From assembly GCA_963815115.1 (NCBI GenBank), contig CAWFFN010000005.1, positions 32,001 to 96,000 of the forward strand: a stretch of DNA of 64,000 bases, given 5' to 3'. The notes under the pieces were generated by a model that searched no databases, had not been told where the DNA came from, and saw nothing but the letters and a program-made list of their open reading frames with translations. Numbering within the stretch: position 1 is the stretch's first letter; each line of letters starts with the position of its first letter. Made by a program: the position numbers and the translations under genes. Positions 8,345 through 53,975 of the stretch are shown in pieces. Origin of the DNA: an uncultured delta proteobacterium. Its GTDB lineage: Bacteria; Desulfobacterota; Binatia; DP-6.

Positions 8345-9442
8345 TCAGTGTCCAGGGTGGCTCCGCGCGGCCTCCTGTGCGCGTGTCGACTCGTGCACTG
8401 CACCGGCGAGATCCTGCAGGACGATGATCGGCCTGCTGCTCCGCTGAATGAGGTGCGCCACCGTGCTCCCGTACCGGTCGTTCGCGTTCCCGGTGGCCCC
8501 GTGTGCGCAGGCGACGATCAGATCGACGTCGTCGCGATCGGCAAGCTCGAGGATGGTATGAGGCTTGCGCGTCGAGACGACCGCGTTCGTCTGTACCCGG
8601 ATGCCCTGTGCCGAGAGGTCGTTCGAGAGGTTCTGCAGATAGTGCTCGCTCTCGAGGCGATTCCGTTCCGTGAGCCGGCGCGCGAGGGCGACATCCTCGG
8701 ACGACGGCGGCATGCGCCGGGGGAGCTCGGGCTCGGGCACGACGTGGGCGAGGACCAGGTCGGCGTCGTGCGCGCGAGCGAGCGCGACGGCGAAGGGCAG
8801 GATGCACTCGGCGCGCGGAGAGCAGTCGAGCGGCACGAGGATCCTGCCGAGGCGAAGCTGGGGTCGGCGTGCGGCCTCGGCGGCGTAGGCCGGCACGATG
8901 AGAATCGAGCTGTGCGTCCGTGCGACCACCTTCTGCACCGTGCTGCTGAGCACCCAGCTCGTGAGACCTCCTTCGCCATGGCTCGAGAGCACGATCAGGT
9001 CGACGTGGTGCTCCTGCGCGAAATGAATGATCTGCTCGGCCGGCCGGCCCTCTCGCACCGCGACGTCGGAGGTGAGGCCGGCGGCTACGAGCTGGTGGTT
9101 GAACCGTGCGAGCTGGCTGTGCGCCTCGGCGCGCGCGAGCTCCCACTCCACGGGATCGACGTGCCCGCTCGGGGCCGTGAGCACTCGGAGGAGCGTGATT
9201 CGTGCCGAGAGCACTTTGCCCACCGCGGCGGCGAACGGCAGGGCACACGCCGCCACCGCCGAGCCATCCAGCGGCACCAGGATGTGGCGAATCGTAAGAC
9301 TGGGATACCCGGCGGCGTCGCCTGCGGGCCCGGCGAAGGCGGACCGGCGAGTCGCTTGCGAGTCCCCCGCGGTCCGCTCAGCGAGTCGGGCGACCTGCAA
9401 GAGCGCGTCGGCCAAGGGAGAAGTCGTGTGTTCGAACGCCAT
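8345..9442 (-). CDS. Universal stress protein, tandem USP domains
   Basis: HILVPLDGS...VDLIVLSSHG...SSTVQKVV, plus a second ILVPLDCS...DLIVACAHG domain. Confidence 0.9.
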   Translation of the reverse strand: MAFEHTTSPLADALLQVARLAERTAGDSQATRRSAFAGPAGDAAGYPSLTIRHILVPLDGSAVAACALPFAAAVGKVLSARITLLRVLTAPSGHVDPVEWELARAEAHSQLARFNHQLVAAGLTSDVAVREGRPAEQIIHFAQEHHVDLIVLSSHGEGGLTSWVLSSTVQKVVARTHSSILIVPAYAAEAARRPQLRLGRILVPLDCSPRAECILPFAVALARAHDADLVLAHVVPEPELPRRMPPSSEDVALARRLTERNRLESEHYLQNLSNDLSAQGIRVQTNAVVSTRKPHTILELADRDDVDLIVACAHGATGNANDRYGSTVAHLIQRSSRPIIVLQDLAGAVHESTRAQEAARSHPGH

Positions 9443-9530
9443 GCGCAAGGCGACCTGAGTGCTCAAGGCACTCTACATGCCGAGACGCTCCGCCGCTTCA
9501 CCGAGAGGTCCGCAGCCCACGAGTGAGGAT

Positions 9531-10202
9531 TCATCTCCAAGGATCGATCTCGAGATGGTCCTCCACCGACCGAACACCCGGCGCGAAGCGTGCCGCCGCC
9601 AGCGTCGCTCGCTTCTCCGCCCATGAGCGGACGTGGCCAGTGAGCTTTACGGTGCCAGTGGGCGTCACCTCTACCCCGATGCGCTTGGCTTCGCGATCTG
9701 CTCGTCGCTCGAGGGCATCTTCGATGGCTTCGCGGACCCGCTCCGGCAGCACCGGCGTTGTGGAGAGGACCGTCATCGTGTCGAACACGCCGCGCACGCC
9801 GACCAGGTTCTGCACCGCACGCTCGGCATCCTCGCGTTGGGTCCAGCTGTCGACGGTACCCTCGAGCGTCACCCAGCCGTTCGACACGGTCGACTGGATG
9901 CGCTCGTGCGGAACCAGCGCATCCCACTCGAGCGCCCGTCGCACCGCCTGTGCGATCTCGGTATCCGTCCGCACGAGATCTCCGGGGAGCTTCACCTTGA
10001 TGTCGTTCGCGACATCGAGCACGCCTGTTACGCAGTGCGCTGCCTCCTGAGCGGCCACTCGCTTGGCCCAGCTGCTCACCGTGCCGGTCAGGGTGACGAC
10101 ACCGCGATCGACCTCGACCCCGACCTCCGTCTCTTCGACCCGCGGATCCCAGCTCAGTTCGCGGAGCACGTCTTGCTGAATCTCTGAGTCGCTCTTCGCC
10201 AT
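9531..10202 (-). CDS. BON-domain (OsmY-like) protein with three BON repeats
   Basis: Repeated SDSEI..V...L...GVVTLTGTV.SW pattern; GGAGG RBS before ATG 10202. Confidence 0.9.
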   Translation of the reverse strand: MAKSDSEIQQDVLRELSWDPRVEETEVGVEVDRGVVTLTGTVSSWAKRVAAQEAAHCVTGVLDVANDIKVKLPGDLVRTDTEIAQAVRRALEWDALVPHERIQSTVSNGWVTLEGTVDSWTQREDAERAVQNLVGVRGVFDTMTVLSTTPVLPERVREAIEDALERRADREAKRIGVEVTPTGTVKLTGHVRSWAEKRATLAAARFAPGVRSVEDHLEIDPWR

Positions 10203-10231
10203 GATCAACCTCCCATGTCTCGCTCATTGGA

Positions 10232-10247
10232 TGCAACTGCGATGCCA
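10232..10247 (-). promoter_or_regulatory. Sigma-54 -24/-12 promoter for the BON-USP-GH94 unit
   Basis: TGGCAT-CGCAG-TTGCA, 30 bp upstream of the BON ATG. Confidence 0.75.
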
Positions 10248-10337
10248 GTTGCGGTATCAGCGGAAACCCGAGAGGATGGCCGCCGAGATTCCGAGTGACA
10301 GAAGAGAGGGTGCGCTCGGTGTTCGCAAGCTCGAGGT

Positions 10338-12194
10338 TCACTGGGACGGCAAGATGACGCTGAAGACCGTCCCGGTCTCGGGGCGGCTGCTCAGAGCGAT
10401 CTCCCCGCCCATGGACTCCGTCGCGAGCTTGCAGAACGGCAAGCCGAGCCCCGTGTCGCAGCTCGACTCGCTGTCGCCTGACCGTCGGATCGAAGCGAAC
10501 TTTTCGAAGACGCGCTGGTGGTCATCCTCGGCGATGCCCCGGCCGTGATCGATCACCCGCAACCTCACCCGGGCCGTGGCCGGGTCGAGCGTCGCTTCCA
10601 CTCGGACTTCATCGCTGCCGCTGTGCCGGAGCGCGTTCACCACCAGGTTGACCAGGACGCGCTTCAAGAGCGCGCGGTCGGCGACGATGCACGGCAGCTC
10701 GGGGCCGACCGCTGCCACGAGCCGGCGGCCCGCCTGCTCTGCAACGGGACCGTACTCCACCACGACCTCGTCGACGATCTCGGCGAGGGCGATCGGGCCC
10801 CGGCTGACCGGCATCTTCCCCTCCTCGACCTCTCTGATCTCGAGCAGGTTCTGGATGAGGCGCATCATCTCGCGGCACGTGCGCTCGATCTGGAGCAGCG
10901 AATTGCGCTGTGTTGTTGGAAGATCCTGGCCCTTGCGCAGCGCGAGCTGGACCAGCATGGTGATGCTGTTCACCGGGTCCTTGAGGTCGTGGACGATCAT
11001 ATTCGAGAGGTCGTCCTTCAGACGCTCGGCCGCCGCGCGGGCGCGCAGGCCCGTCTCGGTCGTCGCACGGGCCTCGCGCTCAACCGCGTAGAGACGGTCA
11101 CGTCTGATCGCCAGGGCGAGGCAATCCGCGACCAGCTGCAGCAGACGGGACTCGTCCTCCGTGAAGCGCCGCGGCTCACGGGTGCCGACATGGAGAACCC
11201 CGAGGGCACGTCCATCGTTCAGGATTGGGACACCGAAGAGTGAGCGAACCCCGGTCTCGAGCAGGACGGGATCGAGAACGTCGGCGGGGGCGACGGCTTC
11301 GAGCATGAGCGGCCGACACTCATCGGCGATTCGCCCGGCGAAGCCCTTCCCGACGGGAATGGCGACCTCGTGCGCCCGGGTTTCATCGAGCCCAACGGCG
11401 GCATGCGTGCGAAGGCTGCCGGCGCGCTCGTCGAGAAGAAGGATCACGGCCGTGTCCACGGCGAGCATCCTGTGAATCCGCCCGAGCAGCTCCGATAGCT
11501 CCTCGTCGAGGGAGAGGTGAGCGAGGCCCACGTCTAGGGCAGGGAGGGCCGCCCGTACGGTTCTCGCCTCACGATTGCGAATTTGGATGACGGCGGCCAG
11601 GCGCTGGGCCGGTGAGATGCCGATCAGCCGTTTCGCATCCGGCAGGCTGACTCTCCCTTCACGGACGAGATCGGCGGCCTCCGGGGCCTCCGCCACGAGT
11701 TTCTTCGCTGTGCTGACATAGCGGCCGTTGACGCGGAGTAAGGATCCAGCCTGGTCTGCTGCTTTGCCGACAGGGTAGGGAATTCTTTCCCTACCCTGTC
11801 GGCCTCGACCCGCAATCTCGCCTCCCCGGCGCATTCGCATCTTGGCCTCTTCGGCAAGCACCTTCTCGAGCTCGACCGCGAGGACCGCGCGCTGGCCCTT
11901 CGTCAGATCGCGGCGCTTGAGGTTCATCGACACCACATAGGCCGTCGGCGAGCCGCTGTTCGCATACTCCGTGTAGGTGGGCTTCACCTTCGCGAGCTTG
12001 CAGGCGATCCAGCGGTTGCGCCCATCGAGGATCGCGCCATCGTGGCGGACGATCGGTGACCGCAAGCCGTGCGCCGCGATGTCGGCAGCGAGGGCGCAGA
12101 GCTCGTCGGGTGCCAGGAGCGGGAAGAGCGCCGTGGCTGCATGGACCGCAGGCAGCTCGGCGGCGAAGCCGGCCGCTCGAGTCTTGTCGTTCAT
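10338..12194 (-). CDS. ParB-like N-terminal domain fused to GAF, HisKA and HATPase_c histidine kinase
   Basis: N-term LFPLL..LAADIAAHGLRSPI..ILDGRNR..AC..YVVSMNLKRRDL; GAF (GKGFAGRIA..LGVLHVG..RRFTEDE); H-box IVHDLKDP; N-box NLVVNALRH; G-boxes DHGRGI and GLGL. Confidence 0.85.
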   Translation of the reverse strand: MNDKTRAAGFAAELPAVHAATALFPLLAPDELCALAADIAAHGLRSPIVRHDGAILDGRNRWIACKLAKVKPTYTEYANSGSPTAYVVSMNLKRRDLTKGQRAVLAVELEKVLAEEAKMRMRRGGEIAGRGRQGRERIPYPVGKAADQAGSLLRVNGRYVSTAKKLVAEAPEAADLVREGRVSLPDAKRLIGISPAQRLAAVIQIRNREARTVRAALPALDVGLAHLSLDEELSELLGRIHRMLAVDTAVILLLDERAGSLRTHAAVGLDETRAHEVAIPVGKGFAGRIADECRPLMLEAVAPADVLDPVLLETGVRSLFGVPILNDGRALGVLHVGTREPRRFTEDESRLLQLVADCLALAIRRDRLYAVEREARATTETGLRARAAAERLKDDLSNMIVHDLKDPVNSITMLVQLALRKGQDLPTTQRNSLLQIERTCREMMRLIQNLLEIREVEEGKMPVSRGPIALAEIVDEVVVEYGPVAEQAGRRLVAAVGPELPCIVADRALLKRVLVNLVVNALRHSGSDEVRVEATLDPATARVRLRVIDHGRGIAEDDHQRVFEKFASIRRSGDSESSCDTGLGLPFCKLATESMGGEIALSSRPETGTVFSVILPSQ

Positions 12195-12388: not shown

Positions 12389-13006
12389 TCACCGGGACGG
12401 GCGCGTGGGACCCGTCAGCAAGATCCGCACGAGATCGGCCTGGCACTCCGCACCTAGCTTCGCGAGGACACGCTTCATATGCGCGCGCGCCGTGTGGCGA
12501 CTGGTTCGGCGCCGCTTCGCGATCTCATCGATCCGGCCGCCCTGGAGGCTGAGGAGTGCCACCTGCGTCTCTGCCTCGGTCAGGCCGTATGCGCGAAGCA
12601 CCTCCCGCCATGTCTGCATAGGGTGTCCGGGATCCGTGATGAGGAGAAGCGCTGTGGGCGATTCGCTCGCCCCGACGACATCCCAGGGGCGCAGCGGTGC
12701 CACGAACAGATGGAAGGCGGGGCAACCCGACGGGCGGGAGACACGCAAGGCACGGCCAGTGACCTCCGCGGCCCTCTCCGCGCGCCGGCAAACCTCGTGA
12801 ACGACGTCGTGCAACTTGGCTGATTCGGCCGGCTTGGCGGCGACGACGCGGCCCTGCTGGAGCGACAAGCCGTCTCGGGCATCAAGCGTGTCTCTCGCGA
12901 GCGTGTTCTGCGCGAGGACCTTGCCGCTGGCGTCGAGTATGAGCACGCCCATCGGCAGCCGGTGATCGAGCAGACCGAGTTGGATGTCGCGACTTCGGCC
13001 CGCCAT
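12389..13006 (-). CDS. LuxR/CsgD-type HTH regulator with PAS-like N-terminus
   Basis: YGLTEAETQVAL..GGRIDEIAKRR..SRHTARAHMKRVLAKLG..QADLV. Confidence 0.85.
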   Translation of the reverse strand: MAGRSRDIQLGLLDHRLPMGVLILDASGKVLAQNTLARDTLDARDGLSLQQGRVVAAKPAESAKLHDVVHEVCRRAERAAEVTGRALRVSRPSGCPAFHLFVAPLRPWDVVGASESPTALLLITDPGHPMQTWREVLRAYGLTEAETQVALLSLQGGRIDEIAKRRRTSRHTARAHMKRVLAKLGAECQADLVRILLTGPTRPSR

Positions 13007-13097: not shown

Positions 13098-13804
13098 GGC
13101 GACTATCTCCGTGCGTTCGACGCCGCCATGCGGCACTACCACATCACCGTGCACGACCGTGAACTCGCGTGCGCGCCCTTCCGCTCGGCCGAGGGCCAGG
13201 CCTACTTCGCCGCGATGAACGCCCGCCGCGAACACGGCCTTCGCGAATCGCCAGGTCATCACGCACCGCGTGCGCGAGGCGATGGGCGCAGTGTTCGGGA
13301 AGGAGCCGCGAGCTGGGGCTCTCGGTGATCTACGATGTCTGCCACAATACGGCCAAGCTCGAGCAGCATCGGGTCGACGGCGAGGTGCTCGACCTGGTGG
13401 TGCACCGCAAGGGAGCGACGCGCGCCTTCGGTCCGGGCATGCCCGACGTGCCGACCATCTACCGCGAAGTCGGCCAGCCGGTGATCATCGGCGGCTCGAT
13501 GGAGACGGGGTCCGCCCTCCTGATCGGGACCGCGCACGCGATGGAGGAGACGTTCGGCTCGACGGCGCACGGCGCCGGGCGGACGATGTCGCGCCACCAG
13601 GCGAAGCGCCGGGTGTGGGGCGCGAAGCTCCTCGAGGACATGGAGGCACGTGGCATCGTGGTGCGCGCGGCATCGAAGTCCGGCGTCGCCGAGGAAGCGG
13701 GCTTTGCCTACAAGGACCTCGCGGCGGTAGTCGACATGCTGGACCGCATCGGCATCTCGCGCAAGGTGGTGTCCTTGACGCCGATCGGGAACATCAAGGG
13801 ATAG
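13098..13804 (+). pseudogene. rtcB: RtcB RNA ligase, 3' half only, with two frameshifts
   Basis: DRELACAPF, AANTAFANRQ, YDVCHNTAK, HRKGATRAF, GGSMETGS, STAHGAGR, AEEAGFAYKD and PIGNIKG are spread over three frames; the N-terminal half is absent. Confidence 0.9.
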
Positions 13805-13805
13805 G

Positions 13806-15810: not shown

Positions 15811-16293
15811 TCAGGCGGCGACGGAGAGCTCGCGGTGCTCGCGCGGCATGCAGATCGCCCCGAGTGTCTCGGCGACCTCGTCGCTGCCGACCTCGGGCTT
15901 CCCCGACGCCCCCCGCTCCCGAGCGACCTCCCGCGCGATGTCGTTGAGCGACAGGAGACCGATGACGTGGTTCGCCGGGTCGACCACCGGCAGCCGCCGC
16001 ACTTGCGCGGCGCGCATGATGCTCTCCGCCTCCGCGACCGTGTCCGTCGGGCGGCACGAGCGCACCTCGCGCGCCATGGCGCTCCCCACGCACAGGTGAC
16101 TCAGTAGCCCGCCCTGGGTGTAGGTCGCCATGCAGACATCGCGATCGGTGATCATCCCCACGGCTCGTCCGTCGTCGTCTACGACGGGGACGCAGCCGCA
16201 GTCGTTCTCCCACATCAGCTGCGCGGCGTGGTTGAGGGTGTCGCTCGACAGGCAGGTCTTGACGGTCCGACTCATCACTTGCTCGACTTTCAT
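15811..16293 (-). CDS. CBS domain protein
   Basis: AAQLMWENDCGCVPVVD..GMITDRD..QVRRLPVVD..GLLSLND. Confidence 0.9.
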   Translation of the reverse strand: MKVEQVMSRTVKTCLSSDTLNHAAQLMWENDCGCVPVVDDDGRAVGMITDRDVCMATYTQGGLLSHLCVGSAMAREVRSCRPTDTVAEAESIMRAAQVRRLPVVDPANHVIGLLSLNDIAREVARERGASGKPEVGSDEVAETLGAICMPREHRELSVAA

Positions 16294-16321: not shown

Positions 16322-16759
16322 TCAACGCACGGAGACGTCGACGCGGCGCGCCTTCGCCTGCGCGGCCTTGGGCAGCGTGATCTTGAGGATTCCCTCCTTG
16401 AGCTCCGCGCTCGCCTTGGCCGGGTCCACGTCGGCGGGCAGCGGCATGGTGCGCTGGAAGGCGCCGTAGCGGATCTCCTGGCGGTAGTAGCTCTTCTTCT
16501 TCTCCTCGGTCTCCTTGCGCGTCTCGCCCCGCACGGGGACCTCGTCCTCGCTGACCGAGACGTGGAGCTGTTCTTTCTCCACGCCCGGCACCTCCAGCTT
16601 CACGATCACGTCACCGTCCGACTCCACGACCTCTGCGGCGGGCTCGAGCGGGCCGACGCTGGTCTCTGGCGTGGCGAAGAACTCGCGGAAGAGATCCTCG
16701 AACAGGTCATCGCGGCGAGCGAGCGAGCGCATCGGTCGCCACCTGGTAAGAGCTCTCAT
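16322..16759 (-). CDS. Hsp20/alpha-crystallin small heat shock protein
   Basis: EVPGVEKE..EIRYGAFQRTMPLP..A.LKEGILKITLPK. Confidence 0.92.
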   Translation of the reverse strand: MRALTRWRPMRSLARRDDLFEDLFREFFATPETSVGPLEPAAEVVESDGDVIVKLEVPGVEKEQLHVSVSEDEVPVRGETRKETEEKKKSYYRQEIRYGAFQRTMPLPADVDPAKASAELKEGILKITLPKAAQAKARRVDVSVR

Positions 16760-16801
16760 GATGCCTCCCTCCTTGGGGCTGACTTCTCGAGTGTCAGTGC
16801 T

Positions 16802-16817
16802 CGCAAACTTCAGGCCA
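16802..16817 (-). promoter_or_regulatory. Sigma-54 promoter upstream of hsp20
   Basis: TGGCCT-GAAGT-TTGCG. Confidence 0.65.
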
Positions 16818-16907
16818 GGTCCTTAGGGCGATACCTGCGTGGACTATTCTCGGATACGCCAACACCAACGTGCTTGAGATTCTCAGCCTCGGGCACCCAG
16901 GTGCCCC

Positions 16908-17657
16908 TCAGGTTCTGACCTCAGCGAAGTGACGCAGCACCACCCTCAAGCCGTCATGTGCGAGCGTCGCTTCCACTCCGCGCTCGTGACCCATCGCACG
17001 GATCCTGCTCGCTACCGTCTCATCGTCGTCCCCGACGATCTGCGTACCGCAATGGGTGAAAATCGCGCGCGGGACGCCTGCGGTGCGGCACCAATCGAGC
17101 TGTGTGCGGATGGAGGCATGCCCGAAGGGCTCGCCGCCGGCCCAGCGGACGATCGGACGGACGAGGCTCGCGCCATCGCCAACATAGAGGCGGAGTCCGG
17201 TGAGCGCCGCGGTGCGCGCCGGAATCGAAACGAGGTCGGGGACGTAGAAGATGGCAACACCATCCACCCCGATCCGGTAGCCTACCGAAGGGGCACGGAG
17301 CGAGTGCTTCACCGGAAACGCCTCGAACGTGATGCCGGCGATGACCACCGGCGAACGGCGAGGAATCACCCGTCGGCGCCGCAATGGGATAGCGAATCGC
17401 TGCATGCCATCCCACCCCTCCGCGGTGGCATGAACCGGGCAGGGAGCGCCCTGCTTGAGACCCGAGGCATGGTCCGGGTGGGCGTGCGTGATAACGACCG
17501 CGCTCGGGCGCAGGTCTTCGAGCCGCCCGAGCCAGTCTTCGCCGCAGTCGACTATCACGCGCCGTCCGCCGTGCAGCACGAGCAGAGCCGAATGCATGGC
17601 ATGCCGTGACGAGTGGGCGACGATGCACCCGCGCGTTCCGAGGAAGACGAGCGTCAC
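16908..17657 (-). CDS. MBL-fold metallo-hydrolase
   Basis: FLGTRG, VDCG, THAHPDHASG, HS and HCG motifs; GTG start overlaps the upstream stop. Confidence 0.85.
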   Translation of the reverse strand: MTLVFLGTRGCIVAHSSRHAMHSALLVLHGGRRVIVDCGEDWLGRLEDLRPSAVVITHAHPDHASGLKQGAPCPVHATAEGWDGMQRFAIPLRRRRVIPRRSPVVIAGITFEAFPVKHSLRAPSVGYRIGVDGVAIFYVPDLVSIPARTAALTGLRLYVGDGASLVRPIVRWAGGEPFGHASIRTQLDWCRTAGVPRAIFTHCGTQIVGDDDETVASRIRAMGHERGVEATLAHDGLRVVLRHFAEVRT

Positions 17658-18045: not shown

Positions 18046-18513
18046 CTAGCCTCCCGCTCGCACCAGAGCATAGTCGTCGACCGTGGGCCGCACCAATCGA
18101 GCGAAGTCAGCGTACTTCATCCGGACCGTCTGCGTGTGCGTGCCCGCCTGAAACACGATCTCCTCGCGGCGCCCGAGGGTGTGGTCGACATAGACCGGAA
18201 GGCCGAAAAGGTTGCCGCAGGGTGGCATCGCGCCCGGTTCGCAGTGCGGGAAGATCCGGGCGAAGTCGGCCTCGGTGGCGAGCCGAGCTCTGCGCTCCGG
18301 CAGCTTCTGGAGGTCGACTCTGTCGGGTGCAGGGAGCACCACCATCAGAAAACGGCCAGGGGCCTTCACCATCACGACCTTGGTGAGTTCCTGCGCCGCT
18401 ACATGCTGGACTGCCGCAACCCCCTCAGCCGTGAAGGCGAGCGAATGGCTGAGAACAGTATAGGCGACACCGTTGTCGTCGAGGAATTCCTTGAGCTTGG
18501 CGAGGATCGGCAT
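18046..18513 (-). CDS. YbaK/EbsC family aminoacyl-tRNA deacylase
   Basis: H..AFTA..VA, LATEADF..IFPHCEPGAMPP, FQAGTH. Confidence 0.88.
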   Translation of the reverse strand: MPILAKLKEFLDDNGVAYTVLSHSLAFTAEGVAAVQHVAAQELTKVVMVKAPGRFLMVVLPAPDRVDLQKLPERRARLATEADFARIFPHCEPGAMPPCGNLFGLPVYVDHTLGRREEIVFQAGTHTQTVRMKYADFARLVRPTVDDYALVRAGG

Positions 18514-18522
18514 GCCGACCTC

Positions 18523-18538
18523 AGCGAAGCCCGTGCCA
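18523..18538 (-). promoter_or_regulatory. Sigma-54-like promoter upstream of the ybaK-like gene
   Basis: TGGCAC-GGGCT-TCGCT. Confidence 0.45.
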
Positions 18539-18558
18539 GGCATGCGCCGTGCGGGGCA

Positions 18559-19090
18559 TCAGGTCGCATGCGCTCGCCCACGGGGAAGACGCGGCTCGCC
18601 TGCGGGCCACGCTTGCCGCGCTCGATCTCGAGTTCCACGGGCAGGCCCGCTTGCAGAGAGGTGAAGTCGAGCTCGTGGAGGGCGTTGCGGTGGAATAGAC
18701 TTCCTCTCCCCCATCGGTGACGATGAAGCCGTAGCCCCGGTCCCTGAAGATGCGCGCGATCGTGCCCGACGGGCGCGGCCCGGGGGGCTTGCCGAAGTGG
18801 TGGCGCTCCTCGTGGTGTGCGACCAGCTCGCGCTCGAGCACGTCGAGCGCAGCATGCAGCGCGTCGCGCATCTCCTCCTCCTGCTTCGCGGCGCGCAACG
18901 TGGCGCCTGGGCACGTCGCGACGATATCGACCTGCTCCGCGCCGTGTAGGTGGTGAGGCCCGTGCTTCAGCGTCACGTGGACCCGGATCAGCTTGGGATA
19001 GCGCTCCAGGAGCCGCGACAGCCGTTCGTCAATGAGGGCGCGCCATTCGGGCTGCAGGTCCACATGCTGGGTTTGGATCTCGATGTCCAT
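18559..19090 (-). pseudogene. Ribosome hibernation factor (HPF/RaiA) fused to a cold-shock domain, frameshifted
   Basis: HPF-like N-term, then RGYGFI..EEVY|FHRNAL...GPQASRV. One T is missing at ~18695 and one base near 18568, judged against the second copy at 23355-23597. Confidence 0.85.
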
Positions 19091-19103
19091 GTTCCCTCTT
19101 CGC

Positions 19104-19119
19104 TGCAACCCCCGTACCG
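19104..19119 (-). promoter_or_regulatory. Sigma-54-like promoter upstream of HPF-CSD
   Basis: CGGTAC-GGGGG-TTGCA. Confidence 0.55.
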
Positions 19120-19182
19120 CCGCGCAGCGGGACGTGGCGCCCTCCCGTGGGAGCCGTCGAGCGACAGCACGGCAGCCGGCGG

Positions 19183-20539: not shown

Positions 20540-21028
20540 TCAGAGCTTGTAGCCGAGGCGCCGCAAGAGCGTCTTGCGCGCCGCGACATCGTTCTCGGTC
20601 TCGACACCTTTCGGGCGTGCGCCGTCGATCACCCCGAGGATGCCACGTCCCGTGGCCGTCTCGGCCACGATGATGTCGACGGGGTTGGCCGTCGCGCAGT
20701 AGATGCCGCAGACCTCGGGCACGTGCCGGATGACGGGCAATACGTTGATCGGGTAGCAATCGCGGAGGAGCACGAGGAAGCTGTGCCCCGCCCCGATCGC
20801 CTCCGCGTTCGTGCGGGCGAGCGTGGCGAGCTCGGCATCCGTGCCGCTCCACCGGACGAGGCAGGGTCCCGACGACTCGCAGAAGGCGAGGCCGAAGGTG
20901 ATGCCGGGCACGGCGGTGACCAGCGCTTCGTGGAGATCCTCGACCGTCTTAATGAAATGTGCCTGGCCGAGAATCAGGTTGACGGCCTCGGGTTTTTGGA
21001 TCGTTACGGAGACGAGATTCAGGACCAT
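20540..21028 (-). CDS. Adenosine-specific kinase family (DUF355) protein
   Basis: NLILGQAHFIKTVEDL..FGLAFCESSGPCLVR..GHSF..YCATANP..GRGILGVIDG..LGYK. Confidence 0.88.
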   Translation of the reverse strand: MVLNLVSVTIQKPEAVNLILGQAHFIKTVEDLHEALVTAVPGITFGLAFCESSGPCLVRWSGTDAELATLARTNAEAIGAGHSFLVLLRDCYPINVLPVIRHVPEVCGIYCATANPVDIIVAETATGRGILGVIDGARPKGVETENDVAARKTLLRRLGYKL

Positions 21029-21048
21029 GACTCTTCCTCCGTCAGAGG

Positions 21049-21064
21049 TTCAATCGCCGTGCCA
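21049..21064 (-). promoter_or_regulatory. Degenerate sigma-54-like promoter
   Basis: TGGCAC-GGCGA-TTGAA (conserved -12 C is lost). Confidence 0.35.
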
Positions 21065-21294
21065 GATGATGGGCGCAGCAGAATCGTCTCGAGATGTCCC
21101 TCAGGAGCGCGCGCTAGGGAAGCATGCTGGGACATCTTTCCTGGCCATGGGAAGCAATCTCGACCAGGCGGCCGCCTCGGCTCCTCAATGCTCCTCCTCC
21201 GCCTGCACGGCGCCCCGGATCGCCGGGTTGTCGTCAGGCCCGCACGCGCCAGCGCGCCTTCTCCGGACATAGAGCCGCCAAGGCATCCACGCGA

Positions 21295-21910: not shown

Positions 21911-22019
21911 GGCGATGAGTTCCGGCCCGGAACGAAGGGTTCCTTTCCGATCGTGGGAAGCTGACCCGCGGATCCTCTTGCCGATGAGAGGCCCCGGCAG
22001 TCACGGTCGACCCAGACCG

Positions 22020-22035: not shown

Positions 22036-22049
22036 CTTCTTCGTCCCCA

Positions 22050-42791: not shown

Positions 42792-42803
42792 GTGGAAAGG
42801 CAA

Positions 42804-42819
42804 TGCAGGGGGCGTGCCA
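42804..42819 (-). promoter_or_regulatory. Sigma-54-like promoter upstream of pcm-ere
   Basis: TGGCAC-GCCCC-CTGCA. Confidence 0.6.
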
Positions 42820-43334
42820 GCGTGCGGCCGCAGGCATTCCCACACGCTCTTCGATCCGCCTCGCAGGGTCGGCAGCGCACGGCCCGGAACGTTCGCAGTC
42901 ATGCGAACCCGGCCGTCGATGATCGCGCCGGCATGCGGCGAGCCGAAATCGTGCTGGCTACACCAGCCCTTTGCGGCCTCCGGGAGGGCCAGGTAGCTCC
43001 GCCGCCCTCTTAGGCATGCCTGCCGTGCGTCGTAAGACGCCCCGCTAGCGCTGCAGCCTGCGCCATCGCTGGCTTAACCTTCTTGTGCCTGCGCCACCGC
43101 ACGCAGCGGGTGAGCACGGAAAACGGGGTGACGCCCGGAGTGCGGTAGCGGGCCGCCCAGGTCGGCCGGAATCCTTCGGAAGCCTGTCCGGCGCCCGTGG
43201 CGGGCGTCACGACCGTGATCTTCCTCGCCCAGGGGGGCAGAAGACCCTTGCCTCCGAGACCACGCGGGCGGTACAGGATCCGAGACGGGGACGGGCCCGT
43301 CCATTTGGAAATTGTCGGATGAGGCCGAGGGGCT

Positions 43335-43787
43335 ATGGGTGACTTAGTGCCGAGTGACAGGACGGACATCCACCGGGCTCTGGCTAGTGACCATGAGCGG
43401 TTGGAGCAGCTCTTCCGCGAGCTCGAGAACGCAGTGGAGGGTGCGGATCAGCCGACGATTCAGCGCGACTGGACCGATTTCGAGCGCGGAGTGCTCGCTC
43501 ACTTCGAAGCCGAGGAGCGGCTGATATTTCCGCTCCTGGAAACCGAGCACGCTCCCGAGGTCAAGCGAGCCAAAGAAGACCATGAGCGCGTGCGCGCACT
43601 GCTGGCCATCCTCGGCGTGCGCACGGATCTGCATTTGTTGCGCAAGGAGGTTGCTGACGAGCTCATCGCGCGCCTTCGCGAGCACGCGGAGTGGGAAGAT
43701 CGAACGCTCTATCCCTGGGCGCAAAGCAAGGCGAGCGAGGAAACGCGCCGCTTGCTCCGCGAGTCGCTCCTGGGCGAGAGGATTTGA
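43335..43787 (+). CDS. Hemerythrin/HHE cation-binding protein
   Basis: DHERL..HFEAEERLIFP..DH..HAEWEDRTLYP. Confidence 0.88.
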   Translation: MGDLVPSDRTDIHRALASDHERLEQLFRELENAVEGADQPTIQRDWTDFERGVLAHFEAEERLIFPLLETEHAPEVKRAKEDHERVRALLAILGVRTDLHLLRKEVADELIARLREHAEWEDRTLYPWAQSKASEETRRLLRESLLGERI

Positions 43788-43819
43788 GTTTACGCGCTAC
43801 GCTGCCGATCCGGTTCGCT

Positions 43820-44387
43820 CGTTACGGAACAGCGGCGGGCTGGTAGGCGCTTCACCGCGTTGACCTGCGCCGTCTCGAGGCGCACGAAATGCCGGCGGCG
43901 CGCCAGCGTCTCGCGCACGCGGGTGACCGCGGGCGGCGGCACGTGCACGACGGCGCGATAGATCCCGCGCCGCAGCCCGTCACGGAGCTCGAACGCATCC
44001 CGCCGGTCACTCTTCTGGGTGGGGCGGTGCGCCTTGAGCCGCACCTCGCGGGCATCGATCACGCTCGGGGCGCACCCCAGCGCCGTCAGCTCCCGCGCGA
44101 CGAAGAACGCCACGGTGCTGGTCTCAAGGGCGACGGGCGTGCCGGCCGGAAGGTGCTGAGCGTCGTACCAGCGCCGGAATCCCTCCGGCGTCGTCGGCAT
44201 CTCCCCCTGCGCCATCACCTGCCCGTGCCCGTCCTGGATCACGAACACGCTCGCCTTGCTGTGCGCGTCCAATCCCACGTAGCATTCCATCGGGCTGCCC
44301 TCCTGCTGTTTGGGGCGCCGTCTCGGCTGACCCCGTGGTCCACCGCGAACCGTATCGCGGCGGAGGGCAGCCCGTCTTCATTGCTAC
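43820..44387 (-). mobile_element. Truncated IS110-family element (N-terminal DEDD domain plus upstream non-coding end)
   Basis: YVGLDAH, VALE, KSDRRDA; stops after ~155 codons; 13-bp inverted repeat upstream. Confidence 0.88.
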
Positions 44388-46192: not shown

Positions 46193-48352
46193 CTATGGAA
46201 CGGTGACGAACTGTGCGTTGCCGGGTAGGCTGAGCGAGCCCGGTCCCGGCAGATCGGCGAGCCCGTCGAGTGCCAGGCTGCCGGTCGGTGGGATGCAGAA
46301 GTTGCTCACGAGCACCCCGGCGTGCGACAGGCCGTCGGTCAGATCGCCGGCCGGCGACCCGTTCTGCGTGATCGCCTGGGCCGTCGACTGGCCGAAGGCC
46401 CCGGCGTTCACCTGGCCCGAGCAGAAGAGCCCGTCCGCCGCTTGCGTGTTGGCCGGCGCCGAGGTGAGCGGATTGAGGCTCACCGGCAGCGTGGCCACGA
46501 AGGTGCCCGGGCTCGGCAGACAATCGAGCGACGTCTGCGTGCTGTTGTTGGTCGTGCACGGGAAGTTGACCTGGACGCCGTAGTTACAGACACCGCTGCC
46601 GTTGTCGCAAATCGGGCAGACGGTGGGCTGGCCCAGGGTCAGGTAGACGAGCGACGCCAGCTCGATGTCGACCGACGACTCGCCCGTGGCCAGGTTGAGC
46701 GTCCCGCTCGCGTTCTGCGCGAAGGTGTTGACCACGCAGCTCGAGGGGAAGCCGTTCACCAGAACCGGGGGGCCGAAGTAGCAGGGGAGGTCGGTCTGGC
46801 AGGCGCCCGGCGCGAAGCATCTACTGTCGCTGGTGCACTCGACGACCGGGTTGTTGACGCAGTGCTTGGCGGGGCCCTGCGGCGCCATGGAGCAGTCCGC
46901 CCGACTGGTTCCCAGGCTGCCCGCCAGCGTGGTGCCGTCCGGGCTGTCGAGAACCGTGGTGGCGTTCTCCGGGATGAGCGACGGGTTCACGGTCGCCGCG
47001 CCGCCGCCGATGTAGAGGCAGCCGAGCCCGAGGTCGACGAGCTTGGTGCCGACGAGGTCGGAGTCGAGCTGGCCCGAGAACGGCGGATCGGCCGGCGTGG
47101 AGAACCGGCCAGAGCCACAGTTGGCGGTCCCTGCCGCCGTGGTGAACGACAGGTGCTGGCCGAGCGGCGGCGGATTCGTGGTCGTGGTCGTGGTGCTGGT
47201 GGTCGTGTCGAGGGGGGTCGTCGTCGGCACGGTCACCGTGCGTGACAGCGTCGTCCCGACCGAGTCGATCTGCCCCTCCAGCGGCGCCAGCTGCGTCGGC
47301 GTCCCGCACACCTTGAGCGCACCGTTGAAGGACGACGCCGCCTTCTGGCCGCACGGCTCGCTGACCTGCACGCCCGACTTCGCCGCCTTCGAGAAGCACG
47401 TCGCGAAGCCCCGCGCCTTCTTGCCAATCGCGCCGAGCTGCTTGCCGAAGCAGATGTCCGGACCCGGTGCGCCGTTGGTCACCGTCTGGATGGCGGCTGC
47501 GAGCATGCTGTCGACGTCGGCCTCGACCGAGGCCGCGTCGGTGGCGGGGGTCAGGCAGTCACCCTTTGCCTGGGCCTTGGTGAAGCCCTTGTTGAAGTTG
47601 TCGACGGCCTTCTGGATGCAGGCGGGATCGACCGGGAGGCCCTTCTGCAGCGCCTTGGAGTAGCAGGCGGCCTCGGCCTTCGTCTTCTTGCCGGCGGCGT
47701 CCATCTGGCCCTGGGCGCACTTGCTCGCTGGCGATGCGGCCGGCGTGAAGGCGAGGTTGTCCATCGTGAAGATCTCGACGCCGTGGAAGAGGAATCCCGG
47801 CGGCCCGCAGGTATGCGTGCTGGTGATGATGACCTGCGACGCGCCGGGGGCCGCGAAGCTGAGCTGGACGGTGCCACCCGAGAGGGGCACCGGCGCGGTC
47901 ACACTGCCCACCGGCGTGGTGTCCGCGAAGCCCTGAACGGTCACTGCCATGGTGCCCGAGCAATCGATGCCACCCGTGCCGGTGTCGAACTGCATCGACG
48001 TGATGGGCGGATAGAAGTCGAGGAACTCGGGTGTCTGGGGAAGTCCGCCGTTCGACATCGGGAAGGCGCTGATGAAGACGATGAAGTTGGGCGGCGAGAT
48101 CTCGGGCAGGCCGATGCCCGTGCCGCTGCCGAGCAGCGCGCCGCCGTTCTGACCGAAGCCCGAGAAGATGACGCCCTGCGAGGCGAACTCGGTTGTGAGC
48201 GGCCCGGGGAGCGGGATCGAATCGGGGGCGGGGATGTTGTCGAAGTTGATGAAGGTCGCGGTGACCGGCGGCGGGATGATGGGATCCGCCGTCGCCCTCT
48301 GGGTCAGGACTGCGAGAGCCAGTAGGCCTACGAGCAAACTGCGCGTACGCAT
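46193..48352 (-). CDS. Secreted Cys/Thr-rich multidomain protein
   Basis: Signal peptide MRTRSLLVGLLALAVL, Cys-Ala-Lys helical repeats, poly-Thr linker, Cys-rich C-terminal domain; AAAGGAG RBS. Confidence 0.8.
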   Translation of the reverse strand: MRTRSLLVGLLALAVLTQRATADPIIPPPVTATFINFDNIPAPDSIPLPGPLTTEFASQGVIFSGFGQNGGALLGSGTGIGLPEISPPNFIVFISAFPMSNGGLPQTPEFLDFYPPITSMQFDTGTGGIDCSGTMAVTVQGFADTTPVGSVTAPVPLSGGTVQLSFAAPGASQVIITSTHTCGPPGFLFHGVEIFTMDNLAFTPAASPASKCAQGQMDAAGKKTKAEAACYSKALQKGLPVDPACIQKAVDNFNKGFTKAQAKGDCLTPATDAASVEADVDSMLAAAIQTVTNGAPGPDICFGKQLGAIGKKARGFATCFSKAAKSGVQVSEPCGQKAASSFNGALKVCGTPTQLAPLEGQIDSVGTTLSRTVTVPTTTPLDTTTSTTTTTTNPPPLGQHLSFTTAAGTANCGSGRFSTPADPPFSGQLDSDLVGTKLVDLGLGCLYIGGGAATVNPSLIPENATTVLDSPDGTTLAGSLGTSRADCSMAPQGPAKHCVNNPVVECTSDSRCFAPGACQTDLPCYFGPPVLVNGFPSSCVVNTFAQNASGTLNLATGESSVDIELASLVYLTLGQPTVCPICDNGSGVCNYGVQVNFPCTTNNSTQTSLDCLPSPGTFVATLPVSLNPLTSAPANTQAADGLFCSGQVNAGAFGQSTAQAITQNGSPAGDLTDGLSHAGVLVSNFCIPPTGSLALDGLADLPGPGSLSLPGNAQFVTVP

Positions 48353-48903
48353 CGGCAACTCCTTTCCGAGAGGTCCCGGCGCCGGCCACGCGCACCGGCG
48401 CCGAAGAACTGCGCGTTCCCGGGCAAGCTGAGCGAGCCGGGGCCCGGCAGGTCGGCCAGTCCGTCAAGGGCCAGGCTGCCGGTCCGCGGGATGCAGAAGT
48501 TGCTCACGAGCACCCCGGAGTGTGGCAGGCCATCGTTCAGATCACCCGCCGGCACGCCGTTCTGGACGATTGCCTGGGCCGCCCGCTGCCCGAAGGCTCC
48601 GGGGTTCGCCCGCGAGGAGCAGAAGAGACCATCCGCCGCCTGCGTGTTGAGCGTCGCCGAGGTGAGCGGATTGAGGCTCACCGGCAACGTGGCGACGAAG
48701 GTGCCCGGGTTCGGCATGCAATCGAGGGACGTCTGCGTGCCGTTGCTGGTGGTGCATGGCTGGCCCTGGTTGGCGCCGTAGTTGCAGAACCCGCCGTCGC
48801 AGATCGGACAGACGGTGGGGCTGGCCCAGGTCAGGTAGACGAACGACGAGAGCTCGATGTCGACCGAGGACTCGCCCGTGGCCAAGTTGAGCGTCCCGAT
48901 CAT
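48328..48903 (-). pseudogene. Truncated paralog of the C-terminal ~165 aa of the 46193-48352 protein
   Basis: GTLNLATGESSVDIEL..ATLPVSLNPLTSA..LVSNFCIP.TGSLALDGLADLPGPGSLSLPGNAQF is shared. Confidence 0.85.
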
Positions 48904-52249: not shown

Positions 52250-52520
52250 CCTCGCGCACGGCGCGCCACCGCGAGCGGGCTCGCTCCGACCGGCAGCGGT
52301 ACACGCCCACCAGGTGACTCTCCGCGCCGAACGCCGCGGCGAGCAACCGGTTGGTGAAGCCGGGGCGCCTGTCCTCGAAGTCGCTTCGCACGGGCCCGTG
52401 CGGCGGCCAGAGACGACGTGCCCAGCGGACGGCGGCGATGGGCGGGAAGAGGAGACTGTTGAAATAGGTTACGCCGGCGGGGGACAGCGCGGCGCGCGCG
52501 AACGCATTGCACAGCGTCGC
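52250..52520 (-). pseudogene. Class I SAM methyltransferase C-terminal remnant
   Basis: TYFNSLLFPPIAAVR..NRLL...FGAE..LPVGAS. Confidence 0.55.
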
Positions 52521-52534
52521 GCGGGTGTGGCGCC

Positions 52535-52830
52535 GGCGATGCCTTCGCGGGTGATCTGCCGGACGTCGAGGTAGACGGGCGGCGCCGCGAGACGGCGGTT
52601 CAGCCGGCACTCGTCCTCGCACCGGGCACGCCGACGCTTGGCTGCCCGCGCGTCCAGGAACGGAAAGTGTACGGGCTTCTTGAGCTTGTAGACGTACGGA
52701 CCGGCCAGGAAGACGTGCGAGATGTGGGTCCGCAGGTGTTCCACGCTCGCCGGATGATCGGGATAGAAGGCGGGATCGGCGAAGGCGCGGACGACCTCCG
52801 ACTGCGGGTCGGTGGTCGCCTCCTCCGGAT
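52535..52830 (-). pseudogene. Aminoglycoside phosphotransferase/AAA kinase (Rv2004c-like) N-terminal remnant
   Basis: THISHVFLAGPYVYKLKKPV.FPFLD..CEDE.RLNRRLA..VYL. Confidence 0.8.
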
Positions 52831-52857
52831 CCGCTCGATCCCTTCCGGAGTTACCCT

Positions 52858-53265
52858 TCACTTGACGAGAAGCACCGGACAGGCGCACGTGAGCGCGACC
52901 TTGAAGCTCGTCGTGGCGAGCCCCTGGCCCGGCTTTGGCCCGAGCGGATGTGACCCGAGCACGACGAGGTCAGCCCGCCGTGCGGTCGCAAAGCGGAGAA
53001 TCTCCCGCGCGGGATCGCCGATCGTAACGGCGTGCCCCACCCGCAGGCCGGATGCGACGAGCGACGCTACCGCACGTTCGACGACGCCCTCGGCCCGCTG
53101 GCGCAGGCGCGCGTAGAAGGGACGGAGCTCCGCCGCAGGGAGGCCGGGCACACGCTGGATCACGTGGAGCACCGTCACGCGTTTGGTGGGCAGCGTCTCA
53201 ACGATCCGGAGGCAGCGGGTGCTACGCTCGCTCAGATCGATGGGGATGAGGACGTGTGCGAACAT
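52858..53265 (-). CDS. Universal stress protein
   Basis: FAHVLIPIDLS..GDPAREIL..ADLVVLGSH..CPVLLVK. Confidence 0.9.
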   Translation of the reverse strand: MFAHVLIPIDLSERSTRCLRIVETLPTKRVTVLHVIQRVPGLPAAELRPFYARLRQRAEGVVERAVASLVASGLRVGHAVTIGDPAREILRFATARRADLVVLGSHPLGPKPGQGLATTSFKVALTCACPVLLVK

Positions 53266-53388
53266 GGAATCAGTGCGTACCCACTCGCGCACCAGCGACG
53301 AGGCCCTGCATCACGACGAGGATAGTTCCGGGCGTTTCCGGATATGCACGAGTCGGCGCTCTCCGGCAGCGCCGGCCAGCGAGTGTGC

Positions 53389-53843
53389 TCACTGCTGCAG
53401 CTCGGGGAGCCCGGCCTTCGTCTCCGCGACGCCGAGGACGCGTGCCAGGTGACGAAGGCAGTCGGTCTCGCTGACCCAGACCCACGAGCTTTCCGTGTTC
53501 GACGACCGGCAGGCAGCCGATCCGGTGCCGAAGCATGAGCTCGACCGCCGTGTGGATCGTATCGTCAGGTGCCGTCGTGATGACGTTCGCCGACATAACG
53601 GCCCGCACGGGGACGCTGGCGAGCCACTCTCGCTCGGCCGACCGCTGGAGCTGCAGCATGGACGACACGGCCGCGCGATAGAGGTCGCGTTGCGACACGA
53701 TGCCCACCACGACGCCGGCGGAGAGCACCGGCAGGTGACGGATCCGACCCAGCTGCATGATGTCCTCGGCGAGCCCAAGGTTGTCGCTGGCTCTTGGCTC
53801 TGAGCGTCACCACTTCCCGTTGCATGAGATCACGAATGAGCAT
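53389..53843 (-). pseudogene. CBS domain protein, frameshifted
   Basis: MLIRDLMQREVVTL, IRHLPV..GIVSQRD, RIGCLPVV and SETD lie in different frames. Confidence 0.85.
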
Positions 53844-53975
53844 GGGAATCGGTGTTCCAAAGTGCGTGCCAGGCCGAAGCCCCTTCTGGATCGTACGCCT
53901 GCGTCGCGTGCTTTCCCATACATGAGAATGTCTGGCGTCGGGCCATAACCCCGCCATCTTATGAAGGAGAGGGAC

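Follow-up and report, generated by a model that had tools for sequence, protein, structure and literature searches.

Low oxygen induces one and the same set of survival genes (for ribosome hibernation, a small heat-shock protein, universal stress, CBS and BON proteins, and protein repair) in Mycobacterium tuberculosis as well as in Burkholderia, but under two regulators unrelated to each other. In M. tuberculosis the regulator is DosR (DevR), a NarL-type protein, and its regulon comprises the families USP (universal stress protein), CBS, M50-CBS, Hsp20, S30AE/HPF, RtcB, PRTase/DLH, Ere domain and AAA_33-type kinase. Here, we describe a stretch of 64,000 nucleotides (C5:32001-96000, hereafter the window) from the 6.89-Mb draft genome of a Binatia bacterium (12 contigs, labelled C1-C12, ~70% G+C), in which genes of several of these families stand behind sigma-54 promoters, some of them with a common upstream enhancer palindrome. 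Much of a sigma-54-dependent regulon for stress and dormancy is probably contained in the window, and a third circuit for the gene set would then consist of sigma-54, an NtrC-type activator and a haem-globin sensor.

In Burkholderia cenocepacia, the lxa genes share an Anr/FNR-like motif, TGA-N6-TCA, and Anr-related regulators of the CRP family have been proposed to act on it (PMC3721108). The one published precedent for the principle discussed here is the NmpRSTU system of Myxococcus xanthus, where the protoglobin kinase NmpU signals through the hybrid kinase NmpS to the NtrC-type regulator NmpR (PMC11841059, PMC6211767). As described there, NmpR binds GCGCA-N5-TGCGC and activates 7 sigma-54 promoters (23 genes) under hypoxia, with CBS, USP, cbb3 oxidase and HemN-hemerythrin among its targets (PMC11841059). 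The value of the Binatia system lies in its scale, its different site and its signaling layout, and not in a wholly new mechanism. What is new here is the palindromic enhancer, the activator-protoglobin kinase pair, the paralogy of a GAF kinase and the co-occurrence across 40 relatives.

The candidate Binatia activator, which is likened to NmpR by its published description and not by sequence, is likewise an NtrC-type protein associated with sigma-54 promoters carrying an upstream inverted-repeat site, with a protoglobin haem kinase as sensor. Genes for CBS-domain proteins, USP and cbb3-type cytochromes are among the targets of both systems, with a hemerythrin encoded close by in Binatia; besides, a sigma-54 site with enhancer before the activator gene run of one relative would parallel nmpR autoregulation. 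However, the Binatia site reads TTCCCA-N4-TGGGAA, the kinase is encoded directly beside the activator, and a second, paralogous kinase of the GAF type is present. At the locus, to which the search was confined, neither an NmpS-like hybrid kinase nor an NmpT-like double-receiver protein was found in this genome or in four relatives. With ~35 promoters, the Binatia regulon would be about five times larger than that of NmpR, and it adds genes for HPF, Hsp20, BON, M50-CBS, PCMT-Ere, PRTase/DLH, PfpI, BCAM0308, gluconeogenesis and 2-oxoacid dehydrogenase.

The DosR/lxa-like gene content proposed in the first-pass annotation of the window was confirmed by domain calls with Pfam and NCBIfam. The window and contig C12 together hold the Pfam families USP, CBS, M50-CBS, Hsp20, S30AE, RtcB (a remnant), PRTase, DLH, Erythro_esteras and AAA_33 and, as with DosS and DosT, a pair of paralogous sensor kinases seems to feed into a single response regulator. 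The control is of another kind, with an NtrC-type regulator and sigma-54 in Binatia instead of a NarL-type regulator and the housekeeping sigma factor, and with HisKA kinases carrying a protoglobin or a single GAF domain whereas DosS and DosT are HisKA_3 kinases with GAF-GAF. No DosR ortholog was found in the window. With the lxa locus, the Binatia system shares its location in accessory islands and genes of the USP, BON, CBS and Hsp20 types, and it encodes a probable BCAM0308-family protein (NF040826, 97.1 bits, E 7.8e-28, just under the curated cut-off of 100), but sigma-54 promoters with an NtrC-type enhancer take the place of the Anr/FNR-like motif. Classical enhancers of the NtrC family are dyad-symmetric, often paired, and lie upstream of -24/-12 promoters. 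Compared with these, the Binatia sites are unusually close (centers from ~-63, a start 12 nt after the GC being assumed) and strictly phased in ~10.5-bp steps, and many of the promoters lie so near the start codon that leaderless mRNA would result.

Our literature search returned no paper joining Binatia and sigma-54 and no description of a sigma-54-wired DosR-like regulon. A comparative paper on sigma-54 regulons reports UspA enrichment in Planctomycetia, with no mention of hibernation, dormancy, hypoxia or Binatia in its main text (PMC12316311). Through the present analysis, a soil lineage that is abundant but uncultured gains a defined enhancer motif, a candidate pair of sensor and regulator, and a list of ~35 target promoters. 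It bears on the entry of non-sporulating soil bacteria into dormancy, on whether the wiring of a regulon is replaced while its gene content is kept, and on tightly phased, promoter-proximal enhancers at sigma-54 promoters.

Sigma-54 promoters and their enhancer palindrome

Sigma-54 promoters were scored with a 22-column matrix, trained iteratively on the intergenic, gene-directed matches of this genome from the seed GG[CT]A[CT]-N5-NTGC[AT]. At 14 bits or more, 128 intergenic gene-directed sites were found genome-wide together with 36 other intergenic ones, whereas coding DNA, although six times larger, held just 46. The strict pattern TGGCA[CT]-N5-TTGC[AT] has 24 matches in the genome, 20 of which lie between genes and point at a gene start no more than 200 bp away; sigma-54 promoters are therefore a real feature of this organism.

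The first-pass annotation had listed 12 sigma-54-like motifs in the window, and all of them were recovered at the same places and in the same orientation. Graded by the matrix, eight are strong (12.5-19.7 bits, all intergenic and directed at a gene start), those at 18520 and 53853 are intermediate, and those of hsp20 and ppsA are weak (Table 1). Thus, 8 of the 153 intergenic gene-directed sites of at least 12 bits in the genome fall within 46 kb, where ~1 is expected; in a sliding 46-kb count only a cluster at the start of C7 was richer (up to 13 sites), and a block on C8 tied at 8. For the 52 gene starts located between 8345 and 53871, the 150-bp upstream regions contain 11 matches of at least 10 bits in sense orientation and 0 in antisense, against a mean of 0.59 and a maximum of 4 in 300 dinucleotide shuffles of the same regions. 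Both the excess over background and the dependence on orientation that had been predicted are hence borne out. The region is regarded as an accessory island, since no BON or TerB homolog was found in the four same-genus genomes searched.

A shared activator site, which had also been anticipated, emerged from k-mer and dyad enrichment in 48 island promoters (15 from this genome, G000, and 33 from relatives, numbered from G001 upward) relative to 144 other genomic sigma-54 promoters. The hexamer TGGGAA and the dyads TTCC-N8-GGAA and ATTC-N9-GGAA were enriched, the consensus being a 16-bp palindrome, TTCCCA-N4-TGGGAA, with the looser form TTCssA-N4-TssGAA. At most three mismatches to this palindrome were found in 33 of the 48 island promoters and in 23 of the 144 others. 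In a cross-validation with a matrix built from 24 sites of relatives only, 9 of the 15 island promoters of this genome reached 10 bits, as compared with 18 of the 144 others (Mann-Whitney p 2e-5), and most of these 18 lie before paralogs of island genes. Genome-wide, 39 of the 72 palindrome sites of at least 14 bits are intergenic, though intergenic DNA makes up 13.7% of the genome, and a sigma-54 site (at least 9 bits) lies 15-135 bp away from 21 of these 39 versus 2 of the 33 in coding DNA. The palindrome accompanies six promoters of the window and ~35 in the whole genome.

The spacing between enhancer and promoter is strongly constrained. This is illustrated by 41 distances that cluster at 26-28, 37-39, 49, 57-59, 69-70, 78-79 and 90 bp (Rayleigh p ~3e-9 at period 10.7, with 8 periods tried), so that the palindrome ends ~26 + 10.5n bp upstream of the promoter 22-mer. 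Tandem palindromes ~31 bp apart occur at C9:1766937 and C8:822496. An enhancer-like palindrome of 13.9 bits was also noticed at 28526-28541, between the TerB and AMP-ligase genes and 19 nt before the ligase start, with no sigma-54 site of at least 8 bits near it.

Two further features of the promoters deserve mention. At several promoters (53853-53874, 21046-21067, C12:41092 and C5:30528), TTGG or TTGA takes the place of TTGC as the -12 element, although the -24 box is excellent and the enhancer canonical; two of these promoters precede CBS genes, and the deviation may be functional. Besides, the predicted start codon (23 ATG, 6 GTG) lies 7-13 nt after the 22-mer in 29 of the 128 strongest promoters, i.e., in 23%, compared with 8.6% among weak, chance-level matches; window examples are 42801-42822 and 26786-26807. 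With a transcription start assumed 12 nt after the GC, such start codons would fall at -1 to +6, without room for a Shine-Dalgarno sequence, and leaderless sigma-54 transcripts seem to be common in this genome.

Candidate activator, sensor kinases and conservation in relatives

As anticipated, the genome carries one copy of rpoN (PF04552, 208 bits, a 497-aa open frame at C9:663902). Among 49 PF00158 matches, ~38 correspond to full enhancer-binding proteins; none of the latter is encoded on C5 before position 427,904, hence none in the window, in line with the earlier suggestion that the activator gene lies outside it. BLAST searches of the window proteins against the genome revealed sister clusters at C5:13-29 kb, C12:36-49 kb and C9:1.765 Mb. 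The second of these includes, at C12:36388-40097, genes for a USP, an NtrC-type activator, a Protoglobin-HisKA-HATPase kinase and a CBS protein, and it is flanked by sigma-54 promoters before genes for CBS, a cbb3-type cytochrome c, PRTase-USP and a 552-aa AAA_33 kinase.

The activator gene, C12:36898-38166, is the candidate for control of the regulon, a role backed by the shared enhancer motif, by synteny in relatives and by co-occurrence across genomes. Its 422-aa product matches the Pfam REC, Sigma54_activat and AAA lid models but no HTH model, with D52 and a GAFTGA motif at 217-222, and its best NCBIfam matches are the AtoC and NtrC models, both below their cut-offs. In this genome, a Fis-type HTH can be read only with a 1-nt change of frame close to the 3' end of the gene, and it is in frame in four aligned orthologs (448-452 aa); on these grounds, a natural form of the protein devoid of a DNA-binding domain was rejected. 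Such single-base shifts split the activator HTH (C12:38050-38260), ppsA and the USP gene at 37202-37944, and could be either assembly indels or real decay. Because ppsA and the USP gene are also split, assembly indels are suggested for the activator.

The kinase gene beside the activator, C12:38226-39542, encodes a protoglobin domain (PF11563, E 7e-36) that aligns with HemAT, GsGCS and AfGcHK, with conservation of the FYD tyrosine and the F-helix histidine, which we take to be the distal and proximal haem residues. Its closest paralog is the GAF kinase of the window (54% identity over 256 aa; next best paralog, 37%), and both DHp helices are nearly identical between the two. As DHp residues set the partner specificity of kinases, both proteins probably serve the same regulator.

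The activator and protoglobin kinase pair is found inside the islands of four relatives (G005, G007, G012 and G038), amid many sigma-54 sites and with pcm-ere, BON, Hsp20, CBS, TerB or BCAM0308-like genes. In G005, an 18.4-bit sigma-54 site with enhancer heads a same-strand gene run containing both genes, which may form a single autoregulated operon. Sites are also conserved before individual targets. A sigma-54 site reaching 11.9 bits or more precedes 5 of the 8 BON copies or homologs in this genome and its relatives; 4 of the 6 loci with a tblastn match to TerB reach at least 11.1 bits, and the TerB homologs of G014 and G012 have both enhancer and promoter. The Hsp20 homolog of G005 has a 13.9-bit site with enhancer, the PfpI homolog of G007 an 11.3-bit site at the same short distance, and the G005 and G007 homologs of the BCAM0308-like/FBPase genes sites of 17.8 and 17.1 bits.

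The pcm-ere gene, whose best outside relatives are in Binatia metagenome-assembled genomes, allowed the comparison to be extended beyond the lineage. A site of at least 15.8 bits stands 7-53 nt from the start in 8 of the 14 full-length fusion loci of the lineage, own locus included, and in none of the six stand-alone pcm loci; a site of 16.3 bits also belongs to the pcm-ere paralog on C9. In other lineages, 12 bits were reached at just 2 of 77 loci. Universal sigma-54 control of pcm-ere was therefore rejected in favor of a lineage-specific rewiring, and the previous claim that the toolkit had been rewired to RpoN is supported by this scarcity as well as by the Anr/FNR-like motif of lxa (PMC3721108). 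The PCMT-erythromycin-esterase fusion itself is widespread, with 561 confirmed relatives of 54-69% identity in Proteobacteria, Gemmatimonadota, Acidobacteriota, Rokubacteria, Campylobacterota and others.

A combined pattern (enhancer, 24-100 nt, GGYAY-N6-TGC) was then scanned. It has 16 matches in this genome versus 0 for a reversed control, 157 versus 10 in the 40 relatives, and none in 592 kb of outside-lineage pcm-ere loci. An ortholog of the activator (at least 60% identity, E <=1e-178) is present in 23 of the 40 relatives. At least four pattern matches occur in 15 of these 23 genomes but in 3 of the 17 without it (Fisher 0.003, Mann-Whitney 0.0005), values that overstate the case, as the relatives are not independent of one another. 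In line with this co-occurrence, G001, of the same genus and 95% complete, has no activator, protoglobin kinase, BON or TerB, and 0 pattern matches.

A second sigma-54 cluster, denser than that of the window, was observed at C7:7-53 kb. It encodes two activators of its own, and its 13 sites of at least 12 bits stand before genes for phosphoketolase, Ku, Cu/Zn-SOD, YflT, cytochrome c, a GlgX-type debranching enzyme and phasin. None of its promoters is among those carrying the TTCCCA-N4-TGGGAA enhancer, and it is probably a separate stress or desiccation regulon.

Proposed circuit and rival explanations

In the proposed circuit, RNA polymerase with sigma-54 would bind the -24/-12 promoters directly before the operons of BON, HPF, adenosine kinase, M50-CBS, PfpI-PRTase-DLH-PRPP synthetase, TerB-ligase-2-oxoacid dehydrogenase, BCAM0308-FBPase, pcm-ere and CBS-USP, and probably before hsp20. 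Open complex formation would be driven by the NtrC-type response regulator of C12 (REC, AAA+ with GAFTGA, Fis-type HTH), binding to the palindrome always on the same helix face and often to two copies ~31 bp apart. Its gene would share an operon with the USP, protoglobin kinase and CBS genes, the kinase would phosphorylate the regulator, and the GAF kinase of the window would probably be a second sensor feeding the same regulator. What the haem senses would most likely be a gas or the redox state (O2, NO or CO), hypoxia being suggested by the haem-globin sensor, and entry into dormancy would be the output. On a larger scale, we put forward tentatively, with a slight leaning against it, that throughout the Binatia a sigma-54 regulon of ~35 promoters, holding the whole DosR/lxa-type toolkit, is under the direct command of a single haem-globin kinase and NtrC-type activator, joined by a second kinase of the GAF type, through proximal one-face enhancers (centers near -63 + 10.5n) and with many leaderless transcripts, which would make it an independent third solution for this gene set.

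Several observations weigh against the proposed circuit. No convincing enhancer lies within 200 bp of 7 of the 13 window sites (USP, BON, ybaK, HPF, PfpI, TerB and ppsA). These include two of the strongest promoters: that of BON (10229) has no full enhancer but a half-site of 6.3 bits at distance 71, and that of TerB (27822) has none of at least 8.5 bits within 200 bp and a degenerate palindrome of 4.5 bits at distance 41. For the PfpI promoter (26786), a weak match of 7.5 bits was found at distance 24. In relatives, the enhancer is present at the orthologous promoters of BON and TerB. The sites of hsp20 and ppsA score a mere 3.5 and 6.8 bits, and the single HPF ortholog examined, in G007, has no sigma-54 site (best score -4.4). 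The matrix is not independent of the window, as the seed fixes an A at column 7 and the training set includes the eight window sites themselves. Start codons are provisional as well, since the gene set (6,057 genes, 86.5% coding) comes from a simple codon-usage caller of our own. Eight genomes with the activator ortholog have fewer than four pattern matches and, conversely, G020, G034 and G039 have 4-8 matches although no ortholog was detected. A real frame shift in the activator gene would leave a regulator unable to bind the enhancer. Finally, globin kinases of the AfGcHK type are active with O2 bound (PMC11841059), so that a direct kinase-activator pair would fire under oxic and not hypoxic conditions; this would be avoided if the kinase acted mainly as a phosphatase or if the GAF kinase carried the hypoxia signal.

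The last point leads to the most serious of the alternatives, namely that the regulon is real but serves neither hypoxia nor dormancy, being instead triggered by exposure to oxygen, by NO or CO, by redox or energy stress, or by stress in general. We consider this quite possible, though not the better guess. Globin-coupled kinases related to that of Binatia are active in the O2-bound state, and in Myxococcus an additional, inverting kinase, NmpS, is required for a hypoxia response (PMC6211767, PMC11841059). No hybrid kinase lies beside the Binatia activator-kinase pair, and the GAF kinase of the window, with no receiver domain in its N-terminal 267 aa, was rejected as an NmpS-like hybrid. Since the path from sensor to activator lacks such an inverting step, the program might be triggered by oxygen binding and not by oxygen loss. 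The content of the second cluster (Ku, Cu/Zn-SOD, YflT, glycogen debranching) likewise points to general stress or desiccation. Against this, the gene content of the regulon parallels two sets shown by experiment to be hypoxia-induced, that of DosR and, as published, that of lxa (PMC3721108), cbb3-type cytochrome c genes belong to the regulon and a hemerythrin gene lies nearby, and the NmpR regulon, with its CBS, USP, cbb3 oxidase and hemerythrin genes, is hypoxia-induced (PMC11841059). It is also conceivable, but unlikely, that promoters and enhancer are real and that the enhancer is read by another of the ~38 enhancer-binding proteins, the C12 pair being a member of the regulon and not its master. 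Such a reading would accommodate the three genomes with enhancer-promoter pairs and no activator ortholog, as well as the failure to find a sigma-54 site before the activator operon in most relatives; nevertheless, the C12-type protein is the only activator inside the islands (seven island loci in four relatives), its presence tracks the combined pattern, and the other sigma-54 cluster, which has activators of its own, is devoid of this enhancer.

Decay of the regulon in this genome, with an activator truly deprived of its DNA-binding domain, pseudogenes in the island and disruption by insertion sequences, is a reading to which we give little credence. It would agree with the out-of-frame HTH, the split ppsA and USP genes, the RtcB remnant, the Hsp70/DnaJ and beta-lactamase-fold fragments, the IS110 and rve transposase genes (at 43.8 and 55.7 kb of the window) and the lack of BON and TerB in the same-genus genomes. 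By contrast, the promoters and enhancers are in good condition, with scores as high as 19.7 and 17.4 bits, most genes of the regulon are intact, and the single-base shifts fit assembly indels in a 12-contig draft equally well. Highly improbable, and already disfavored, is the explanation that the GG-N10-GC matches reflect chance or another signal, with the genes under sigma-70 and a LuxR-type protein of the window as analogue of DosR. A GerE-type HTH gene does adjoin the GAF kinase gene and two of the listed sites are weak, but the excess in sense orientation over the shuffles, the conservation of sites across genera and the phasing of the enhancer all stand in opposition. The GerE protein, moreover, was rejected as a DosR-like regulator, having neither a receiver domain (Pfam) nor a relative of solved structure at E 0.01.

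Genes of the window and minor observations

The promoters, enhancers and genes of the window are collected in Table 1. GYD, dodecin and phasin-like proteins were also identified by Pfam and NCBIfam.

Table 1. Sigma-54 sites, enhancer palindromes and genes of the window, in window coordinates.
Feature	Position	Strand	Details
Weak sigma-54-like site upstream of tandem USP gene	9464-9485		10.2 bits
Sigma-54 promoter of BON, TGGCAT-N5-TTGCA	10229-10250	(-)	16.5 bits; intergenic, 27 nt before start codon
Weak sigma-54-like site of hsp20, TGGCCT-N5-TTTGC	16799-16820	(-)	3.5 bits
Sigma-54-like site of ybaK-like gene	18520-18541	(-)	11.3 bits; inside 3' end of HPF gene
Sigma-54 promoter of HPF	19101-19122	(-)	13.3 bits
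Sigma-54 promoter of adenosine kinase, -12 variant TTGA	21046-21067	(-)	15.1 bits
Sigma-54 promoter of M50-CBS	22017-22038	(+)	14.9 bits
Sigma-54 promoter of PfpI	26786-26807	(-)	14.0 bits
Sigma-54 promoter of TerB/ACS/PDH operon	27822-27843	(+)	19.7 bits; GGAGG ribosome-binding site downstream
Sigma-54 site divergent to 34927	34754-34775	(-)	12.1 bits
Sigma-54 promoter of BCAM0308-like/FBPase	34927-34948	(+)	12.5 bits
Weak sigma-54-like site of ppsA	38090-38111	(+)	6.8 bits; without enhancer
Sigma-54 promoter of pcm-ere	42801-42822	(-)	19.5 bits; start codon 10 nt after 22-mer
Degenerate sigma-54 site, TGGCAC-N5-TTGG	53853-53874	(-)	9.7 bits
Enhancer-like site of hsp20	16880-16895		11.5 bits; 59 bp upstream of 16799, in phase
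Enhancer palindrome TTCCTGGCCATGGGAA	21138-21153		15.2 bits; 70 bp upstream of 21046 promoter
Enhancer palindrome TTTCCGATCGTGGGAA	21944-21959		13.5 bits; 57 bp upstream of 22017 promoter
Enhancer palindrome TTCCCAATCATGCGAA	34798-34813		17.4 bits; between divergent sigma-54 sites 34754 and 34927
Enhancer palindrome TTCGCAGTCATGCGAA	42892-42907		16.4 bits; 69 bp upstream of 42801 promoter
Enhancer palindrome TTCCCATACATGAGAA	53913-53928		17.3 bits, near-perfect; canonical distance 38 from 53853 site
Tandem universal stress protein gene	8345-9442	(-)	Pfam Usp, 2 stretches, E 1.3e-41
BON-domain gene, 3 BON repeats	9531-10202	(-)	Pfam BON, E 9.8e-48
GAF-HisKA-HATPase sensor kinase	10338-12194	(-)	Pfam; one GAF, HisKA core
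GerE/LuxR-type HTH protein	12389-13006	(-)	Pfam GerE only, E 2.5e-5
RtcB C-terminal remnant	13325-13804	(+)	Pfam; profile positions 275-426 of 426
CBS-pair gene downstream of Hsp20 gene	15811-16293	(-)	Pfam
Hsp20 gene	16322-16759	(-)	Pfam
YbaK-like tRNA-editing domain gene	18046-18513	(-)	Pfam tRNA_edit
HPF/YfiA ribosome hibernation-promoting factor, C-terminal extension	18521-19090	(-)	Pfam Ribosomal_S30AE; NCBIfam TIGR00741 46.5 bits (cut-off 40.9)
Adenosine-specific kinase gene	20540-21028	(-)	Pfam PF04008, E 5e-74
M50 metalloprotease with CBS pair	22050-23315	(+)	Pfam Peptidase_M50 and CBS
Four genes: PfpI/DJ-1, PRTase, dienelactone hydrolase, PRPP synthetase	23911-26781	(-)	Pfam
TerB, AMP-binding ligase, 2-oxoacid dehydrogenase E1 alpha, E1 beta, E2, acyl carrier protein	27868-33648	(+)	Pfam
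Probable BCAM0308-family gene and class V fructose-1,6-bisphosphatase gene	34961-36701	(+)	NCBIfam NF040826; Pfam FBPase_3, E 8e-135
USP gene split over two frames	37202-37944	(-)	Pfam Usp positions 2-70 and 79-129 in two overlapping ORFs
PEP synthase gene (ppsA), split near 38320	38130-38321 and 38318-40534	(+)	Pfam PPDK_N shared between 63-aa and 738-aa ORFs
PCMT (isoaspartyl methyltransferase) fused to erythromycin-esterase domain (pcm-ere)	40800-42791	(-)	Pfam
Hemerythrin gene	43335-43787	(+)	Pfam; neighboring oxygen-related content
CBS-pair gene, USP gene, 130-aa fragment	52469-53758	(-)	Pfam; second CBS-USP module

No sigma-54 site was found for the hemerythrin gene, and Rfam at gathering thresholds gave no match over the whole window. 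The 130-aa fragment of the second CBS-USP module is 64% identical over 94 aa to the product of C12:47256-48914, the 552-aa AAA_33 kinase protein. Several remnants lie inside the island: the C-terminal third of RtcB, a beta-lactamase-fold part and a 137-aa Hsp70/DnaJ chimera (at 16908-17348 and 21551-21964). The N-terminal part of RtcB is missing, ~320 bp separating the remnant from the next upstream gene, and the island of G007 has an intact RtcB gene behind a 12.3-bit sigma-54 site.

At 46193-48352, a 719-aa protein without Pfam match has at least 14 paralogs of 57-79% identity on five contigs, often in tandem; a truncated copy adjoins its gene at 48328-48903, and an IS110 transposase fragment lies ~2 kb off, at 43790-44290. 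The left end of the window (1-8329, minus strand) is occupied by a giant ORF of ~2,830 aa, which runs off the window end and has four large paralogs in the genome, of 41-47% identity.

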